A DNA stretch of 64,000 nt from NCBI GenBank assembly GCA_033664045.1, contig GCA_033664045.1_3674.1, one strand, 5' to 3'. A program made the translations under genes and the position numbers. Source of the DNA: a phage. The notes below the pieces were generated by a model, which was given only the letters and a program-made list of their open reading frames with translations, was not told the DNA's origin and searched no databases. Below are positions 6,216-15,726 of the stretch, one piece after another. Position 1 is the stretch's first letter. Every line of letters begins with the position of its first letter.

Positions 6216-7499
6216 TCATTCCAGAACCTCCCAAGTGTCTGGGTTAACATTTCGGACGCAGATACCGACAGGGAATTGGTAGTTGTTGTCTTCTGTCCTT
6301 GCTTGGTATTTGAAGGTGACAAACTTGCCGATCATTTCCTGCATCCTGTCATAGCTACGCTCCTCGTGCGTGCCTTTCATCTTCATTTTAACAACAACAC
6401 CTTCCTTGTCAACACAGATAAGAACACCTTCATCATTCTTATCTTTCTCAACGTCAATAACTTTCACCTCTGCGTCGTTGAACTTTTTCCATTTCAATGC
6501 TTCAGATGTTCGCTGACCATACTCATACTTACCACAGAAGTTACGCATAATGGTACCTTCATATCCTTCGGACATGAATATACCAACAGATTCTTCGCAA
6601 TGATCAACTGTGTACGCAAGCTCTGCGTCAACAACCTTGATATGGTCAAGCATCAGGGTGGTAACGGTATCCTCTGCATCCATAAGATCTTTGCAGCGTC
6701 CAGACTCTGTTTCTGGATCCCACCACACCTTGTCGCTAGGAATATCAAAAATGTGATACTCCAGATCGTAGCTACAGTACCCACCGTAACGCAAATCATC
6801 ACGAACAGGCTCAACATCGACAGGAATATCTACCTTGTTGAAGTTTTTGTACGTTGATAAGCCTGCCTTAATTGCGGCATGACGGCGTTTTTTATCTGCC
6901 TCATAGTCTTTATCGATCTCGGCCTGAATCTCTTCCTGTGTGCGCCACCGTTTAGCAAGAGACACTATTTTCTGCAAAGGAAGACCATGAATGTATAGTT
7001 CCCCATCAAGTTGTTTAATCCCAGTGGTAGAATGGAAAGAACGAAGTTGCTCTAAAAGCTTTCCTTGAATAGGGTAGGACTTATTGCCACGGGAAATAAA
7101 TTTAGGCTCACCATTTTGGAAAACAACAAGCAGACGAAGGCCATCTAACTTACGCAAGATCCAGCAAGGTAATTTAAGTGCCTTGCCACGCTTCAGATAG
7201 TCATGCACCAGCATGGGTAAAAGGTCAACACCCTGCTCGCAATCTTCCATGTTTTCAACATACCCCAGACGGACTTGTTTTTCCCACTTACTGATCGCTT
7301 CCAGCTCGGCCTGTTGCTCAGCTGTAGTCTCGTTGGCACGACCTACGTTCTTAGGTGTGCATACCGTCTCTTTGTACTGCAATTTACCGTCAAGCTTGCC
7401 AAACTCTACGATAACCTTTTCGCCATCTGTAAATACTTTCCATTGCTGGTAACTTCCATCTTTATTCAGTGCGTACAGTGTTGTTTTGATCTGATGCAT
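6216..7499 (-). CDS. ATP-dependent DNA ligase
   Basis: Adenylation motif I ILRKLDGLRLL (KxDGxR) plus EGTIMR and KWKKF motifs; length suits NTase plus OB domain. Confidence 0.85.
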   Translation of the reverse strand: MHQIKTTLYALNKDGSYQQWKVFTDGEKVIVEFGKLDGKLQYKETVCTPKNVGRANETTAEQQAELEAISKWEKQVRLGYVENMEDCEQGVDLLPMLVHDYLKRGKALKLPCWILRKLDGLRLLVVFQNGEPKFISRGNKSYPIQGKLLEQLRSFHSTTGIKQLDGELYIHGLPLQKIVSLAKRWRTQEEIQAEIDKDYEADKKRRHAAIKAGLSTYKNFNKVDIPVDVEPVRDDLRYGGYCSYDLEYHIFDIPSDKVWWDPETESGRCKDLMDAEDTVTTLMLDHIKVVDAELAYTVDHCEESVGIFMSEGYEGTIMRNFCGKYEYGQRTSEALKWKKFNDAEVKVIDVEKDKNDEGVLICVDKEGVVVKMKMKGTHEERSYDRMQEMIGKFVTFKYQARTEDNNYQFPVGICVRNVNPDTWEVLE

Positions 7500-7768
7500 T
7501 ACTCGGCCTCTTCCTTAAAAATGTTAAACATCTCTTCTTTACTCATTACCAACCAGTCTCCCATAAAGTCAACTAGCCAGTCCCCCTGGTACAAGACAAG
7601 GTTACCAAACGGCTCGACAAGCTCACACATGCGACGAATATCTCTGGTCCGAACAGATGACGATGTAAACACACCTGTATCAATCCACCGTTGCAGATCA
7701 GATACTGATGAAGAGCTTCCGTCAAACTGGTGTGCTTCTACAGGTTTAGCAAGATTAAATAACGGCAT
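7499..7768 (-). CDS. hypothetical protein (89 aa)
   Basis: ORF in operon context only. Confidence 0.35.
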   Translation of the reverse strand: MPLFNLAKPVEAHQFDGSSSSVSDLQRWIDTGVFTSSSVRTRDIRRMCELVEPFGNLVLYQGDWLVDFMGDWLVMSKEEMFNIFKEEAE

Positions 7769-8084
7769 TGCAGTCCTCCTTATCTAATAGGTCTTTTATC
7801 GGGTAAACAAGCAGGTGTGGATCGTAATAATTTATAGTTTTATTCTGCCACACTATGAACTTAATTACAACTAAATTTACCACATCTTTATCTCCATGCA
7901 GTCCAACACACAGATTTGTCCATATTTTGTGGTTGAATACTTTGCTGTCGATGTAGATCTTAGTGTCAAACTTCTCCTCTATACTGCCTATGAGTTTAAC
8001 CAACTCTTTCATCTGATCCCCAAACACAGCATCGTTTTCAAGATCTCTGGAGTGCTTGTACATAACTATCTGCCTCACTTGCAT
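7755..8084 (-). CDS. hypothetical protein (109 aa)
   Basis: ORF in operon context only. Confidence 0.35.
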   Translation of the reverse strand: MQVRQIVMYKHSRDLENDAVFGDQMKELVKLIGSIEEKFDTKIYIDSKVFNHKIWTNLCVGLHGDKDVVNLVVIKFIVWQNKTINYYDPHLLVYPIKDLLDKEDCNAVI

Positions 8085-8126
8085 ACTTTCCGCAACAAGT
8101 AAAGCCGGGTAATCCCGGCTATGTTG

Positions 8127-8840
8127 TTAAATATACTCTGTTACATCCTTGAAGCTCGAAGGCTTCATGATCTTACCTTTACTGTCAAGGAATATGATAA
8201 CTTTATTACCGTTGTAGAATTCTTCCTTGGCAACAAAACCTTCATATCGACCATCAAAGCGTCGTTCAAGATCTTTAATCTCCAACTCTATGAGTTGTTC
8301 AGCAGGCATATCTGCACTGGCACCGTGTGAATACCGTAGATGGTTTACCCGTGCAAACTTGCTGTCATTCGATTTGAGAACCTTACGCATCATCCCGCAC
8401 ACATCGCCGCGAAGCTGGAACAGCAAAGCTGTTGACAACTCCGCTAAGCGGTAAGCTGACGCTCTTTGCTTGGATGTGTTTTTCGCAGCGATCAGTGTAT
8501 CATAGAACTCACCGATCTTGAACTTAAGACCTCGTGGATTATCAAACAGGTTTGACCACTTTTCGTGATTGTCATTAACAAGATAAGCTGCATAACTTGT
8601 GACAACGTGAAGATCGCAGGCCTCTTTTAGCAGGTGATCTCCACCATCACCTTTCTCCAGCTCTTCCAAAACCTCATTAAACTCTTCCTCAATGAAGCTA
8701 AGCTGTAATTCGAATGGTGTGTATGATTTTTTCACTTTAGCTGCCACACGGTTCCAGTTTTCCACCCAATTGGCAGACCAAAGGTAGTTTTCAGGCTGAG
8801 ACAGTTTTTCTAGGTTGTCGATCAGTTTAGTATTCAGCAT
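8127..8840 (-). CDS. MazG-like nucleoside triphosphate pyrophosphohydrolase, putative
   Basis: EEEFNEVLEELEKGD...LKEACDLHVV resembles the MazG ExxE...ExxD metal-binding pattern. Confidence 0.4.
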   Translation of the reverse strand: MLNTKLIDNLEKLSQPENYLWSANWVENWNRVAAKVKKSYTPFELQLSFIEEEFNEVLEELEKGDGGDHLLKEACDLHVVTSYAAYLVNDNHEKWSNLFDNPRGLKFKIGEFYDTLIAAKNTSKQRASAYRLAELSTALLFQLRGDVCGMMRKVLKSNDSKFARVNHLRYSHGASADMPAEQLIELEIKDLERRFDGRYEGFVAKEEFYNGNKVIIFLDSKGKIMKPSSFKDVTEYI

Positions 8841-8853
8841 TAAAGGTCTCCTT

Positions 8854-9615
8854 TTAAAGTTCCATAAAGTTTTCTACAGTTTCAATAAATGCTTTATCAG
8901 AGAAAGCGTCAACAGCACCGTTAAACCATACAGGGATCCCGCGATCCTCATATTGATAAAGGTCGCTACGTGAAATGCCACTTCCATCTGCACTCTGCGA
9001 ATCATACTTGTTTACAATCAGCAGTTTTGTGCCTTTACAAGTAGCAGGAAACAATTCCCAGTTAAAATTAATAACTGTGTTAGAACAACCTACCAGGATC
9101 ACCATATCATTGCTGGTAAGAGAAGTCAACAGGTCATACATGTCTGTATACTTAGGAGCAACCTCACCGAAGAACACCACATTGGGCTTAACCCAAGTAT
9201 ACTTGCCTGTATCTACCTCCGTGTATCCGATATTTTTAATTACATCATTACCTTCAGCATCTTCGTAGGTGATTTCAGGCAAATACCCGTGGACATGTAA
9301 AATATCTTCATGTTTTACACCAGCACGCTCCAGCAAATCATCTACATTGGTGGTAAGGTTGATCACACGACCAGACCAGCGGGAATACCACTCAGCGATC
9401 CGAAGATGTGCAATGTTAGGATCAACACTGCCCAGAGCTACACGACGTGCATTGTAAAAGTCATGCACCTTATAGTAGTTCTTGGCAAAGGTGTGGATGT
9501 TGCACACCTCATCGATGCTGAAATTCTCCCACATTGCAGTGCTACCAGATCGGAAAGTGGGAATACCAGATTCAGCGCTCAAACCAGCACCGGAGATAAT
9601 AATCAGTCGTCGCAT
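8854..9615 (-). CDS. sirtuin (Sir2)-like NAD-dependent deacylase/ADP-ribosyltransferase
   Basis: GAGLSAESGIPTFRS, LTTNVDDLLERAG, HVHG, VVFFGE; the usual CxxC Zn-ribbon cysteines appear absent. Confidence 0.75.
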   Translation of the reverse strand: MRRLIIISGAGLSAESGIPTFRSGSTAMWENFSIDEVCNIHTFAKNYYKVHDFYNARRVALGSVDPNIAHLRIAEWYSRWSGRVINLTTNVDDLLERAGVKHEDILHVHGYLPEITYEDAEGNDVIKNIGYTEVDTGKYTWVKPNVVFFGEVAPKYTDMYDLLTSLTSNDMVILVGCSNTVINFNWELFPATCKGTKLLIVNKYDSQSADGSGISRSDLYQYEDRGIPVWFNGAVDAFSDKAFIETVENFMEL

Positions 9616-9623
9616 AAGTGTCC

Positions 9624-9974
9624 TCAGTAGATGTTTTGTTTAATCTCTATTCCAAACTTTTTAAACGAGTCAGCTGCAAGCATGAATTTACGAGCCGCTG
9701 ATGGATTAGAAGTATGCACGAAAATCTTCACGTTGTCAACTACAGGAGGCTTACCAAATACAAATTTTTCCTCCAACATAGATAGGCAATCGTACCCTTC
9801 GAATACCTCTCCAAGGTCGTTGTCCATATGCCACTCAGAAACGCGTCTGTAGAGCTTTTTATTATCGTTAATAAAATCCATAAACTCGGAGGAATTCTTT
9901 AGCCAAATAGCGTCTTGGAGCCCATAATTTGACGGATCTCTCAAGTCATCAAGCCACACAATCAACTTCTTCAT
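9624..9974 (-). CDS. small receiver-like (Rossmannoid) domain protein, function unknown
   Basis: Conserved-position pattern LIVWLDDLRD ... HMDNDLGE ... IFVHTSNP ... K is reminiscent of a CheY-like fold. Confidence 0.3.
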   Translation of the reverse strand: MKKLIVWLDDLRDPSNYGLQDAIWLKNSSEFMDFINDNKKLYRRVSEWHMDNDLGEVFEGYDCLSMLEEKFVFGKPPVVDNVKIFVHTSNPSAARKFMLAADSFKKFGIEIKQNIY

Positions 9975-10906
9975 TGCATATAGTCCCAGTTGTGGAAATA
10001 GTAATCAAGTATCTCACGGCGTTCCTGCTCCAGGAGACAGTTCCACACGTCTTCTGTGTAATTGCTACGAATGAAGTTTACCATGCCGTAAAACTCTTCG
10101 TCAACACGTTTAAATATATCATCACCCCAAATCTTCCAAGCTTTACTCCTCATTACGGCCTTCCGTGCCAGATAGTATGGAGACTTGATCTTCAGCTGCA
10201 GATCATAAGGGTAGTAAGGCTTACGAATCATATACCCTTCACCTCTTGTTTCTGCAGCTAATTCTTTTGCATAGCTGAACGGAATTTCACGCACAGTGTG
10301 AGGACGTTTTGCACCAAGGTATTTGGCAATCCCATCTAAAGCTGCTTCTGGTAGCATTATTCCAGAATCATTATATCTGCAACCTATCAAATATGCTCCA
10401 TGATCTTCCTGAACAATATGCGGATCTGAAGGGTGACAAATTTCAAACATGAATGTCATGTTTTCATTGCCCATAACCTTCTTGATAAGATCTAAATTAC
10501 CACATTGCTCCCGGATGGTTTCCTTTGCAAGGTTACAATATGGAGAATCAAGAGATCCGGTTGTTGAGAACAATAGTTCCCCTTTATGAGATGATACCAC
10601 ACCGAGGAATCCGTTCTTTTTCTCTACCGCCGTCACAAGCTTATTGTCAGGCAGGTTGGTGGAATTTTCTCCCAAGTTAAACACTTTTGTGAAGGGCCAT
10701 GCCACAACATTTCCTTCATTACCGACAACAATGCCTCGGCACTCCAGCAAACGAGGGGACAAATGCCATAAATTGTTGTAAAATACTTTTCTGGCATATT
10801 TATAGATCTTTAACCCGAGATCTGGGTGATATCTGCTGGTTACAAGACCTTTGTCAACTAGGTCGTCTGCATTAAAATACTTCATCATACGTTCCTCATT
10901 TGTCAT
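9971..10906 (-). CDS. ATP-dependent RNA ligase-like nucleotidyltransferase (Rnl2-like)
   Basis: Motif I VEKKNGF (KxNG), motif IV EGYMIRKP (T4 Rnl2 EGYVLKP), motif V LQLKIKSP; a separate DNA ligase exists at 6216-7499. Confidence 0.6.
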   Translation of the reverse strand: MTNEERMMKYFNADDLVDKGLVTSRYHPDLGLKIYKYARKVFYNNLWHLSPRLLECRGIVVGNEGNVVAWPFTKVFNLGENSTNLPDNKLVTAVEKKNGFLGVVSSHKGELLFSTTGSLDSPYCNLAKETIREQCGNLDLIKKVMGNENMTFMFEICHPSDPHIVQEDHGAYLIGCRYNDSGIMLPEAALDGIAKYLGAKRPHTVREIPFSYAKELAAETRGEGYMIRKPYYPYDLQLKIKSPYYLARKAVMRSKAWKIWGDDIFKRVDEEFYGMVNFIRSNYTEDVWNCLLEQERREILDYYFHNWDYMQ

Positions 10907-10949
10907 TTTGTCAGCCTATCCTGCCACACAAATAACCTAGTGTCAACAC

Positions 10950-10978
10950 TTGAAATTAACAAAACAGTTAGGTATACT
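10950..10978 (+). promoter_or_regulatory. sigma70-like promoter for kinase/phosphoesterase operon
   Basis: TTGAAA-17 nt-TATACT, about 28 nt upstream of the GGAGG RBS and ATG at 11007. Confidence 0.5.
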
Positions 10979-11006
10979 ATCATTGAAATTAAAACGGAGG
11001 ATTGCT

Positions 11007-11414
11007 ATGTCTAAAATGCTATATATCGTGCGTGGTCTACCAGGGTCTGGCAAATCAACACTGGCAAATGCGCTATCTTTAGAAGGCCTGTATCCCCATT
11101 TTGAGAACGACATGTTCTGGTACGACGATGACGGCAATTACAACTGGGATGCAAGTAAAGTAACACTTGCAGCAAAATGGTGCAAAGATAACGTAGAAGA
11201 TATGATGCGTATGGGATACGACCGTATCGTGGTAAGTAATACGTTTACAAAAGAAAAATATGTGCAAGAATATATTGACATGGCAATCAGCTATGGGTAT
11301 AGTTATACCGTAATCGTGGTTGAAAACCGCCACGGTAATAAAAGCATTCATGCTTCAGACGAGGTTGTGGATCGTATGGAACGCCAACTTAAAAACTGCA
11401 TCAAACTTAAATGA
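11007..11414 (+). CDS. P-loop polynucleotide 5'-kinase-like protein
   Basis: Walker A LYIVRGLPGSGKST at N-terminus, like T4 Pnk kinase domain (GCPGSGKST); start set at ATG 11007 after GGAGG. Confidence 0.55.
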   Translation: MSKMLYIVRGLPGSGKSTLANALSLEGLYPHFENDMFWYDDDGNYNWDASKVTLAAKWCKDNVEDMMRMGYDRIVVSNTFTKEKYVQEYIDMAISYGYSYTVIVVENRHGNKSIHASDEVVDRMERQLKNCIKLK

Positions 11415-11421
11415 GGAATGT

Positions 11422-11976
11422 ATGAAATACTTTGTAACAAGCGACACACACTTTCTCCACCAGCGGGTCATGGAGTTTGAGTCATGTCAAAAACACAGAT
11501 CTCAGTATGATCACAATCTTGACAGTATGAATGCTGGAATCATCGCCGAGTGGAACTCTGTTGTGTCACCTGCAGACACTGTGTTCCACTTGGGAGATAT
11601 TGCATGCACTAATGATAAGAATATCAACAAATTGCTCCCAGATATTCTAAATATGTTGAACGGACATATTATTCTTGTTCGTGGCAACCATGACACAAGG
11701 ACGACTGTCAGAATTATGAAAGAGTTCTATCATGAGGTTGTAGATTATTACGAGCTTCGCCACAACAAGAATTTGATCTGTATGAGCCATTACCAGTTTG
11801 CAAAGTGGAACAGAAAGCCTCACGGATCAGTCCAACTGTTCGGTCATGCTCACGGAACCACACAACAGTTGTTTGGCAGGCAGTTTGATGTCGGTTGGGA
11901 TGTATGGGGGAGACTCTTACCATTAGAAGAGGCATACCGTATTGCAATGAGTTTTGATATTGACAGCAGGGAGTAA
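11422..11976 (+). CDS. calcineurin-like metallophosphoesterase (candidate end-healing phosphatase)
   Basis: Motifs SDTHF, HLGDIA, VRGNHD, FGHAHG; start set at ATG 11422 after GAGGAA. Confidence 0.6.
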   Translation: MKYFVTSDTHFLHQRVMEFESCQKHRSQYDHNLDSMNAGIIAEWNSVVSPADTVFHLGDIACTNDKNINKLLPDILNMLNGHIILVRGNHDTRTTVRIMKEFYHEVVDYYELRHNKNLICMSHYQFAKWNRKPHGSVQLFGHAHGTTQQLFGRQFDVGWDVWGRLLPLEEAYRIAMSFDIDSRE

Positions 11977-14913: not shown

Positions 14914-14988
14914 GCCCTGTTAGCTTAGTGGATAAAGCAGCGGCCTTCTAAGCCGTTGACACTGGTTCGAGTCCAGTACGGGGTGCCA
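14914..14988 (+). tRNA. tRNA-Arg (anticodon TCT)
   Basis: Hand-folded cloverleaf: acceptor GCCCTGT/ACGGGGT with G-U pairs, anticodon loop CTTCTAA, T-loop TTCGAGT, encoded CCA. Ends approximate. Confidence 0.75.
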
Positions 14989-14992
14989 AATT

Positions 14993-15079
14993 GGGGAGTT
15001 ATCCCGTAGAGGTAGCGGTGTAGACTGTAAATCTATTGTCATTGCGACTCGGGTGGTTCGACTCCACCACTCCCCACCA
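14993..15079 (+). tRNA. tRNA-Tyr (anticodon GTA), class II with long variable arm
   Basis: Acceptor GGGGAGT/ACTCCCC, anticodon loop CTGTAAA, T-arm GGTTCGACTCC, encoded CCA; architecture parallels E. coli tRNA-Tyr. Confidence 0.8.
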
Positions 15080-15193
15080 AATTTATATTTTTAAATGTAT
15101 AAATCATACAGATAATGGCATTGATATTTATCGTCGTTTATACTAGTCACTAACTGCTCGAAAATCAGTGTCATTATCAGTATTGTTTATAAA

Positions 15194-15284
15194 AGAGGGT
15201 AGGGAGCAATGGTGCTCAAGCGGTCTTGAAAACCGTCCCGTTGAGGATGACTCGATGATGGTTCGATTCCATTACCCTCTGCCA
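15194..15284 (+). tRNA. tRNA-Ser (anticodon TGA), class II
   Basis: Acceptor AGAGGGT/ACCCTCT, anticodon stem-loop CGGTCTTGAAAACCG, long extra arm, T-arm GGTTCGATTCC, CCA. Confidence 0.75.
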
Positions 15285-15372
15285 TATTGTTGACCTTGTA
15301 ATTAAGCGAAAGCCGGAAGCAGAACCGGATTATCAAATGTTACAGTCGTCATCGCCGACTAGCAACATGGTC

Positions 15373-15481
15373 AACATACTGAGCTAGGTAAGCCCTTTGG
15401 CAAGGGCGAGGATTTTTAATCCTGAAAATAGACGAGGTAGTCGTTGAATACATAGGTGGTTCGATTCCACCGCCTAGCACC
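15373..15481 (+). tRNA. aberrant tRNA-like gene (about 107 nt), possible pseudo-tRNA
   Basis: Perfect acceptor GCTAGGT/GCCTAGC and T-arm GGTGGTTCGATTCCACC, but anticodon region AGGAT-TTTTA-ATCCT and a roughly 30-nt extra arm; CC but no encoded CCA. Confidence 0.35.
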
Positions 15482-15486
15482 TTTTT

Positions 15487-15562
15487 GCTGATGTAGCACA
15501 ATTGGTAATGCAATTGATTTGTAATCAATAGGTTGCAGGTTCAAGTCCTGCCATCAGCACCA
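15487..15562 (+). tRNA. tRNA-Thr (anticodon TGT)
   Basis: Acceptor GCTGATG/CATCAGC, anticodon stem-loop ATTGA-TTTGTAA-TCAAT, T-arm GCAGGTTCAAGTCCTGC, CCA. Confidence 0.8.
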
Positions 15563-15563
15563 A

Positions 15564-15638
15564 GGCCCTGTAGCTGGAAGGTTCAAGCAAGCGACTCATA
15601 ATCGCCAGACGGTGGTTCAATTCCACCCAGGGCCACCA
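15564..15638 (+). tRNA. tRNA-Met-type (anticodon CAT; elongator Met or Ile2 not resolved)
   Basis: Acceptor GGCCCTG/CAGGGCC fully paired, anticodon loop CTCATAA, T-arm GGTGGTTCAATTCCACC, CCA. Confidence 0.7.
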
Positions 15639-15649
15639 AATAATAAATA

Positions 15650-15726
15650 CTCCGCGTAGCTCAGCTTGGTAGAGCGCCTGATTTGGGATCAGGAGGTCGA
15701 GTGTTCGAATCACTCCGTGGAGACCA
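15650..15726 (+). tRNA. tRNA-Pro (anticodon TGG)
   Basis: Acceptor CTCCGCG/CGTGGAG, canonical D-arm GCTCAGCTTGGTAGAGC, anticodon stem-loop CCTGA-TTTGGGA-TCAGG, T-loop TTCGAAT, CCA. Confidence 0.85.

Follow-up and report, generated by a model that had tools for sequence, protein, structure and literature searches.

Bacteria commonly counter phages by cleaving tRNA, a widespread strategy that includes PrrC, RloC, PARIS, Retron-Eco7 and the collateral cleavage by Cas13a. To our knowledge, the Pnkp and Rnl1 enzymes of phage T4 are the only experimentally established phage repair answer, and counter-defence against PrrC is the sole role that has been experimentally established for them. Here, we analyse a locus at positions 8127-11976 of a 64,000-nucleotide stretch of phage DNA (NCBI GenBank assembly GCA_033664045.1, contig GCA_033664045.1_3674.1; hereafter, the window). 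This region probably encodes a healing-and-sealing system for RNA, most likely tRNA, in which the conserved core consists of three separate enzymes: an RNA ligase, a kinase and a metallophosphoesterase.

Described repair systems provide several points of comparison. T4 Pnkp and Rnl1 supply the same three chemical activities, and both the ligase family (PF09511) and the P-loop clade of the kinase are shared with the locus. In contrast to T4, kinase and phosphatase are separate proteins here, the phosphatase is a metallophosphoesterase and not a HAD/DxDxT enzyme, and the ligase ends in a helical tail of ~65 amino acids (aa) where T4 Rnl1 has a tRNA-specificity domain of ~120 aa. The bacterial CthPnkp and the Capnocytophaga Pnkp1-Rnl-Hen1 system likewise combine a kinase, a metallophosphoesterase and a ligase. 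However, each bacterial Pnkp enzyme is one polypeptide, with a ligase of another type and the methyltransferase Hen1 as its partner, whereas the locus has no Hen1 gene and its phosphoesterase resembles the uncharacterised Aquifex protein aq_1665. Sealing by a T4-type ligase after bacterial-type healing has a precedent, as tRNA ends healed by CthPnkp can be sealed by T4 Rnl1 (PMC1920235). Finally, the Trl1 and Tpt1 enzymes of fungi and plants recall the locus in the predicted fold of the ligase and in the presence of an enzyme using nicotinamide adenine dinucleotide (NAD+) encoded beside it. Unlike that pathway, the locus encodes neither a 2H cyclic phosphodiesterase domain nor a Tpt1/KptA homologue, and an action of its sirtuin on RNA is hypothetical.

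The closest description is that of Iyer, Burroughs, Anantharaman & Aravind (2022, Viruses 14:1977; PMC9503650, section 3.7.3), who defined a type 2 sirtuin-centred RNA-repair neighbourhood with Escherichia phage V5 and Proteus phage Mydo as prototypes. [quoted passage not shown] The neighbourhood, including Sir2, cREC and MazG, has therefore already been published as a prediction, and the phage studied here, which belongs to the same genus and carries the same genes, adds no new system; the arrangement in Mydo was confirmed independently in our data. Their account is centred on the sirtuin and treats the phosphoesterase as ‘occasional’, whereas a survey centred on the ligase reverses this weighting, and the Vequintavirus gene order turns out to be rearranged into a divergent pair of units. 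What we add is the assignment of the ligase to the Rnl1 type with a structural model, the identification of the kinase and the phosphoesterase (not the sirtuin) as the conserved partners of the ligase, a set of kinase-ligase fusions, the lack of a zinc ribbon across the whole sirtuin clade and a probable dimeric-dUTPase-like fold for the ‘MazG’ protein. In addition, one Pakpunavirus paper mentions the kinase and the ligases and misses the phosphoesterase. The genes of the locus are as follows.

8127-8840, minus strand: probable all-alpha nucleoside triphosphate (NTP) pyrophosphohydrolase, NTP-PPase, of the MazG / HisE / dimeric dUTPase superfamily, 237 aa
8854-9615, minus strand: Sir2, a class III-like sirtuin without the zinc-ribbon cysteines, 253 aa (PF02146)
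9624-9974, minus strand: cREC domain protein, 116 aa (PF20274)
9971-10906, minus strand: Rnl1/Trl1-type ATP-dependent RNA ligase (PF09511, PHROG 562, AlphaFold2/Foldseek)
11007-11414, plus strand: candidate stand-alone P-loop polynucleotide 5'-kinase, 135 aa (AAA_33, PHROG 505)
11422-11976, plus strand: calcineurin-like binuclear metallophosphoesterase, 184 aa (PF00149, PF12850, PHROG 547)

All six open reading frames (ORFs) had been recognised in a preliminary description made from the DNA letters, and each is present where that description placed it, as is every motif that it quoted for the ligase, the kinase and the phosphoesterase. Profile hidden Markov model searches place five of the six proteins above the curated Pfam cut-offs (SIR2, cREC_REC, RNA_lig_T4_1, AAA_33 and Metallophos). 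Over its full length, the region shares 96-97% identity with over 100 rV5-like coliphages whose genomes have been sequenced (Vequintavirus, among them JES2013, BP9 and Murica) and in which the genes are labelled ‘RNA ligase (and tail attachment protein)’, ‘Sir2’, ‘nucleotide pyrophosphohydrolase’, ‘ATPase’ and ‘phosphoesterase’. Eighteen unannotated GenBank records (MG0656xx) titled ‘Campylobacter phage’, with C. jejuni given as the host, are 96-97% identical to the cassette, and these entries look mislabelled or contaminated.

The ligase ORF is 311 aa long when read from the ATG at 10906, although translation probably starts at the ATG at 10885/10888 (~304 aa), which is preceded by GAGGA and agrees with the JES2013 annotation. 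Numbered from the longer start, it carries motif I (KKNG, residues 96-99, positions 10610-10621), motif IV (EGYMIRK, residues 223-229, 10220-10240) and motif V (KIK, residues 239-241, 10184-10192). PF09511 (RNA_lig_T4_1) matches it at 6.6e-15 (56.0 bits against a cut-off of 28.3) and PHROG 562, the T4 gp63/Rnl1 family, at 2.6e-66. Across 20 diverse homologues, the invariant positions are K96-N-G99, E155 in an FEIC motif, E223-G224 and K239/K241; in all, 796 phage records contain a homologue of the ligase. Single-sequence phmmer searches against the PDB were unhelpful for the ligase, the kinase and the NTP-PPase, and family profiles were used instead. The ligase profile (A1, built from the 20 homologues) finds T4 Rnl1 as its sole match in the whole PDB (5.6e-13). 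In the HMMER alignment of this profile, R57, K74, F76, K96 and G99 stand opposite R54, K75, F77, K99 and G102 of T4 Rnl1, and R57, K74 and F76 are invariant; the upstream Arg and the Lys-x-Phe residues are specific to Rnl1 and essential in the T4 enzyme. Lys96 is the predicted adenylylation site.

The AlphaFold2 model of the ligase (pLDDT, the predicted local distance difference test score, 89) brings together the same relatives. Foldseek returns fungal Trl1 ligase domains (Trl1-LIG), archaeal Rnl3 and T4 Rnl1, all at ~1e-12, against 1.5e-5 to 1e-4 for T4 Rnl2. The enzyme is thus an Rnl1/Trl1-type RNA ligase by Pfam, PDB profile and Foldseek, and the Rnl2-like label of the preliminary description has to be replaced: the family profile retrieved no Rnl2 chain, the Foldseek values differ as given above and the motif I lysine lies at residue 96, not near the N terminus. 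The Pfam family, the PDB profile and the structural neighbours also exclude a DNA ligase or a capping enzyme, identities that had been kept in view as alternatives. On the other hand, the protein is not an equivalog of T4 RnlA (TIGR02308; 39.3 bits against a cut-off of 242). Its alignment to the T4 structure 2c5u ends at residue 249 of 375, and beyond motif V the model contains helices only (residues 243-306), which form the ~65-residue tail.

The kinase ORF could be extended upstream to a TTG at 10950, but this codon falls in a promoter-like -35 box, and the actual start is the ATG at 11007, which lies behind GGAGG. The Walker A motif GLPGSGKST occupies 11034-11060, and the protein matches AAA_33 (7.6e-10) and PHROG 505, polynucleotide kinase (6.6e-10). 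A profile of 20 homologues (A2) retrieves from the PDB, best first, PSTK (9e-9), Capnocytophaga Pnkp1 (6e-8), T4 Pnk (1e-7), the CthPnkp kinase (4e-7) and mammalian PNKP. Lys16 and Asp35, 19 residues further on, are invariant in the alignment, and D35 stands opposite the Asp of the Pnkp1 ‘NRD’ motif. By its sequence relationships, the protein belongs to the polynucleotide/tRNA kinase clade and not to the deoxynucleoside monophosphate (dNMP) kinases, the other identity that had been considered. The latter fails because the dNMP and thymidylate kinase matches are marginal and limited to the P-loop (PHROG thymidylate kinase, 7.7e-4), and the nearest solved structures are PSTK, Pnkp1, T4 Pnk and CthPnkp. 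The protein is a candidate for transferring phosphate from an NTP to an RNA 5'-OH, with indirect support from the ligase fusions described below. It is a single domain of 135 aa, and Pfam, PHROG and NCBIfam-type searches found no HAD domain in any of the six proteins.

The phosphoesterase starts at the ATG at 11422 and carries DTHF (11443-11454), GD (11593-11598), GNHD (11683-11694) and GHAHG (11842-11856). PF00149 (Metallophos) matches at 6.4e-07 (30.4 bits against a cut-off of 21.5), PF12850 matches as well, and PHROG 547 does so at 9e-52. The metal ligands D8/H10, D59, N89/H90, H123 and H142/H144 are invariant in 20 homologues (alignment A3). Its closest solved relative is aq_1665 (1xm7, 1.3e-23); besides this protein, the profile retrieves from the PDB only GpdQ-like phosphohydrolases, at E-values up to 0.01. 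We regard the enzyme as a candidate 2',3'-cyclic phosphodiesterase / 3'-phosphatase and, as far as sequence comparison can tell, as a superfamily-level analogue of the healing domain of CthPnkp and not its orthologue. A metallophosphoesterase does take the place of the T4 HAD phosphatase, as had been noticed from the sequence; this replacement is not a novelty, given that the bacterial CthPnkp works in this way (PMC1920235).

Whether these genes belong together was assessed in a survey of 85 loci with a ligase homologue (annotated phages and IMG/VR), which fall into 43 lineages at 70% ligase identity. The six-frame ORFs of these loci were searched with the proteins of the cassette and, as controls, with seven of their neighbours in the window. 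In 36 of the 43 lineages, a kinase homologue is located no more than 3 kb from the ligase, and the same count holds for the phosphoesterase (36/43), compared with 0-4 lineages for the control neighbours. By the same measure, Sir2 accompanies the ligase in four lineages, cREC in three and the NTP-PPase in two (four within 8 kb). Kinase and phosphoesterase are both present in 48 of the 62 loci that have at least 3 kb on each side of the ligase. The co-conservation on which the preliminary description had made its proposal depend is thus clear for the kinase and the phosphoesterase. Together with the ligase they form the core of the system, a trio that is strongly co-conserved well beyond this phage genus.

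Gene order and gene fusion show the same association. Among the loci that extend for 3 kb or more to either side of the ligase, the genes are co-directional in every lineage but Vequintavirus, typically in the order phosphoesterase-ligase-(cREC)-kinase, and the two Vequintavirus loci are the only ones arranged otherwise. Moreover, kinase and ligase are fused into a single ORF of 418-421 aa, with the kinase at the N terminus and an Rnl1-like ligase at the C terminus, in ~11 metagenomic IMG/VR loci (among them L040, L043, L045-L048, L050, L051, L056 and L057; e.g. L046:6917-8176, 420 aa). PHROG 8238 reflects the same kinase-to-ligase layout, as its N-terminal position matches the kinase and its C-terminal position the ligase. 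No phosphoesterase homologue was found within 8 kb of the fusion genes.

For the three enzymes, we infer substrates and an order of reactions. A host ribonuclease cut would leave a 2',3'-cyclic phosphate and a 5'-OH. The kinase would phosphorylate the 5'-OH, the metallophosphoesterase would strip the cyclic or terminal phosphate to expose a 3'-OH, and the ligase, adenylylated on Lys96, would join the ends. In functional terms, this would be the T4 Pnkp and Rnl1 pathway combined with 3' healing of the bacterial Pnkp kind. The cREC protein, translationally coupled to the ligase, would probably be an accessory enzyme that opens the cyclic phosphate, while the zinc-less sirtuin and the NTP-PPase would be co-transcribed in this phage, outside the conserved core. 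A composite counter-defence against anticodon nucleases had been proposed at the outset. The separate-gene healing-and-sealing trio stands on sequence, structure prediction and synteny, and its direction against anticodon nucleases is what we infer.

Several observations weigh against this account. The phosphoesterase belongs to an aq_1665-like family, and because its profile retrieves no Pnkp or lambda-phosphatase-type phosphatase structure from the PDB, its activity on RNA ends is an assumption. The alignment of the kinase shows no obvious counterpart of Arg38 of T4 Pnk, a residue with a functional role. Likewise, tRNA is not established as the substrate because the ligase lacks most of the C-terminal tRNA-specificity domain of T4 Rnl1. 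The RNA ligase also often has an ATP-dependent DNA ligase nearby (15 of the 43 lineages within 8 kb, 12 within 3 kb), more often than it has the control genes. In addition, our literature searches found no biochemical or genetic data on these proteins and no experimental work on a phage sirtuin in RNA repair.

In the window, the ligase is transcribed divergently from the kinase and phosphoesterase, as first noticed from the reading frames: the two groups lie on opposite strands and are separated by a 100-bp spacer between ligase and kinase. As all other surveyed lineages are co-directional, this layout represents a local rearrangement. A switch in the sign of the GC skew between 10 and 12 kb matches the layout (all genes to the left on the minus strand, all genes to the right on the plus strand), in which transcription runs outwards in two arms that open with the ligase and the kinase, respectively. 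The leftward genes are tightly packed: the start of the cREC gene and the ligase stop share 4 nt, and the next gaps measure 8 nt to Sir2 and 13 nt to the NTP-PPase. The following transcription signals were recognised.

10950-10978, plus strand: sigma-70-like promoter candidate TTGAAA-17-TATACT, upstream of the kinase in the divergent spacer; a consensus match only, 10/12
8103-8120, both strands: GC-rich palindromic hairpin directly after the NTP-PPase stop, with a 7-bp stem of which six pairs are GC

The hairpin possibly marks the end of a leftward ligase-cREC-Sir2-PPase unit, although, because its T-run is weak, we treat a role as terminator with reserve. No convincing sigma-70 promoter for the leftward unit was found in the divergent spacer, where visual inspection shows a perfect TTGACA together with a poor -10 box. 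Just downstream of the hairpin (7499-8084, minus strand) lie two small hypothetical genes of 89 and 109 aa without a Pfam hit. They co-occur with the ligase in the same four of 43 lineages as Sir2, cREC and the NTP-PPase, which is the background synteny of the phage group.

The genes outside the core require separate treatment, beginning with cREC. The small protein, which had been called receiver-like, is a cREC domain (PF20274, 1.3e-14, 55.1 bits against a cut-off of 27) with a conserved WLDDLRDP motif that contains the receiver-like acidic pair. For this family, hydrolysis of cyclic phosphates is a prediction, its enzymatic activity being uncharacterised (PMC9503650; PMC7824862), and an earlier survey of jumbo phages had already tied cREC to RNA ligases (PMC7824862). 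The gene adjoins the ligase in Vequintavirinae-like and Phapecoctavirus phages. Elsewhere, Proteus phage Privateer encodes a homologue at a distance of 2.5 kb from an RtcB ligase and tRNAs, and others are located between tRNA genes in large clusters of Proteus phage 2 (L091:4926-5273) and the jumbo Yersinia phage fHe-Yen9-03 (L090:5004-5366). In the 10-kb stretch around cREC of the latter two phages no RNA ligase is annotated, and all proteins that the search for cREC homologues returned stand alone, at ~113-120 aa, none of them in an informative fusion. The linkage of cREC to the ligase is restricted to a lineage, yet its independent contexts point to tRNA or RNA-end biology.

The sirtuin-like protein of the preliminary description is indeed a sirtuin (PF02146, SIR2, 4.5e-28), with E. 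coli CobB (1s5p, 3e-21) and SIRT5 as its nearest solved relatives. It keeps GAGLS, FYNARR, TTNVDD, HVHG (with the catalytic His) and FGE, and hence the NAD+ motifs and the catalytic residue, although it scores below the CobB equivalog cut-offs (123 bits against 243 for NF001753, 104 against 320 for NF040867). CobB has zinc-ribbon cysteines in the segment between the catalytic His and FGE. There, neither the window sirtuin nor seven homologues from four phage groups have a Cys, and no CxxC pair is present. The zinc ribbon helps to form the peptide cleft of sirtuins, and YxxR is the anion-binding motif of class III sirtuins. PADLOC defence models gave no match for the ligase, cREC, Sir2 or the NTP-PPase, and matched the kinase and phosphoesterase weakly via generic regions; as no model matches it, the sirtuin is by sequence not a defence-type SIR2 NADase. 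The third accessory protein, described as MazG-like, probably belongs to the MazG/HisE/dimeric dUTPase superfamily, but it has no Pfam hit above cut-off. On family-level and structural evidence, it is a probable all-alpha NTP pyrophosphatase whose nearest structures are dimeric dUTPases.

These accessory genes are central to a more inclusive explanation, which we consider unlikely. In the manner of Iyer et al. (2022; PMC9503650), all six genes would form one NAD+-dependent pathway in the style of yeast and plants. A 2'-phosphate would arise when the cREC protein (or the phosphoesterase) opens the cyclic phosphate, the kinase and ligase would seal the ends and leave the 2'-phosphate at the junction, the sirtuin would move this phosphate to NAD+ in the manner of Tpt1/KptA, and the NTP-PPase and phosphoesterase would clear ADP-ribose cyclic phosphate by-products. 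This explanation gains from the tight packing of the four leftward genes with their closing hairpin, from a ligase model that fits the fungal Trl1 ligase domains as well as it fits T4 Rnl1, and from a sirtuin clade that has lost the zinc ribbon and kept the NAD+ site and the YxxR motif. It also gains from a T5-like phage without a nearby Rnl1, in which 400 bp separate a sirtuin of the same clade and a HAD_SAK_2 phosphatase of the ‘Swiss-army-knife RNA repair’ kind, and from NAD+ salvage genes (NAMPT and phosphoribosyl pyrophosphate synthetase) that flank the cassette in Mydo and PAK_P1. Furthermore, one mutation makes CthPnkp produce 2'-PO4 ends that need the yeast tRNA ligase (PMC1920235).

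The distribution of the genes does not favour such an integrated pathway. Sir2 (4/43), cREC (3/43) and the NTP-PPase (2-4/43) follow the ligase no better than hypothetical control neighbours do (4/43), and because the counts match, their linkage is evidence at the level of shared ancestry at most. In Phapecoctavirus, the sirtuin lies ~33 kb from the ligase and cREC, amid unannotated genes. Many of the 1012 phage records with a sirtuin homologue are T5-like, and no ligase homologue was seen in the T5-like genera listed. Structurally, the NTP-PPase is nearest to dUTPases, and we know of no sirtuin that acts on an RNA 2'-phosphate. Only in the Vequintavirinae-like lineage does the ligase have Sir2, cREC and the pyrophosphatase as companions; nevertheless, their contexts elsewhere (cREC with RtcB or tRNA clusters, Sir2 with a HAD phosphatase) still tie Sir2 and cREC to RNA-end chemistry. 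It is doubtful, though conceivable, that the zinc-less CobB/SIRT5-like sirtuin is a non-homologous analogue of Tpt1/KptA that removes the junction 2'-phosphate with NAD+ and is not a deacylase. With the same low probability, its YxxR pocket would bind the phosphate, and the cassette would be a phage version of fungal and plant tRNA-splicing chemistry built on a T4-like core. As for the salvage genes themselves, those for nicotinamide phosphoribosyltransferase and ribose-phosphate pyrophosphokinase are ~3 kb from the ligase in Mydo (L003:1554-4101), and the same pair immediately follows the kinase in Pseudomonas phage PAK_P1 (L004:8326-11164), which has no sirtuin.

The cassette could also serve the phage's own RNA metabolism, that is, the maturation or quality control of phage tRNAs or the repair of self-inflicted cuts, and not counter-defence. 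The phage does carry a tRNA set nearby, as had been pointed out before.

14914-15726, plus strand: cluster of 5-7 tRNA genes (ARAGORN, Rfam), 2.9 kb past the phosphoesterase; context of the cassette and not part of it

The cluster reads Arg-UCU, Tyr-GUA, Ser-UGA, a 99-nt Lys-UUU-like gene, Thr-UGU, Met-CAU and Pro-UGG. Its proximity to the cassette, the aberrant Lys-UUU-like gene and the cREC homologues inside the tRNA clusters of two unrelated phages would all suit an internal role. Set against this, ARAGORN and Rfam detected no intron-containing tRNA in the cluster that would need ligation, and the established role of the homologous T4 enzymes is counter-defence against PrrC. We consider an exclusively internal role quite improbable.

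The 99-nt gene (15383-15481, plus strand) is peculiar in several respects. ARAGORN reports it as ‘tRNA-??? (atcc)’, and the Rfam tRNA model gives it 31 bits against a cut-off of 29. In the Rfam alignment, its anticodon loop is UUUUUAA, of 7 nt (anticodon UUU, Lys), the anticodon stem is shortened to 4 bp and the variable arm has an insertion of 26 nt; the fold is a cloverleaf to which one arm is added (z = -3.8). The gene is 95-100% conserved in ~120 Vequintavirus records, where it is labelled tRNA-Lys, tRNA-OTHER or tRNA-TERM or is left unannotated. Since tRNA-Lys(UUU) is the classic target of PrrC, the aberrant copy could be a nuclease-resistant bypass beside the repair cassette. Another member of the cluster (15194-15284, plus strand) is called tRNA-Ser(UGA) by ARAGORN; it falls below the gathering threshold of the general Rfam tRNA model, scores 41 bits against a cut-off of 47 with the tRNA-Sec model and is probably an ordinary class II tRNA with a long variable arm. 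The JES2013 annotation lists only four tRNAs in the cluster.

Finally, the nearby DNA ligase might depend on the kinase and phosphoesterase for the healing of DNA ends (3'-phosphate, 5'-OH), with the ‘RNA ligase’ being incidental or mainly a tail-fibre attachment factor like T4 gp63, which is very improbable: a DNA ligase gene does lie at 6216-7499 and within 8 kb of the RNA ligase in the 15 lineages mentioned above, the phosphoesterase weakly matches PdeM, a ligase-associated DNA-damage phosphoesterase (4.7e-4), and the database label does read ‘RNA ligase and tail attachment protein’, but kinase and phosphoesterase follow the RNA ligase (36/43 each) far better than they follow the DNA ligase (12/43 within 3 kb), the fusions of the kinase involve the RNA ligase and not a DNA ligase, the PdeM match is far under its cut-off and the label is an annotation transferred from T4 without support here.

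Two other features of this genome group deserve mention. In the ATP-dependent DNA ligase (6216-7499, minus strand, 427 aa), Pfam matches are confined to the last ~140 residues, which correspond to the end of the adenylation domain and the OB fold; its first ~280 residues have no family match. In JES2013 (L001:14412-15853, equivalent to ~16.5-18 kb of the window), the large subunit of the terminase is annotated as two coding sequences with an endonuclease VII gene between them, which suggests an intervening mobile element or an intron-like insertion.

For the sirtuin, the Tpt1-like idea has been in print as a prediction since 2022, and its demonstration would be new. If it is true, a protein family that has been studied heavily would gain a new enzymatic activity, namely the action of a sirtuin on an RNA 2'-phosphate. 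For phages more broadly, the healing-and-sealing trio of kinase, phosphoesterase and ligase is spread over many lineages, whose hosts include Escherichia, Klebsiella, Pseudomonas and Vibrio. Should the prediction for the trio hold, counter-defence of this kind would be common, and it would matter for the range of hosts open to therapeutic phages, for instance the rV5-like phages and Pakpunavirus.

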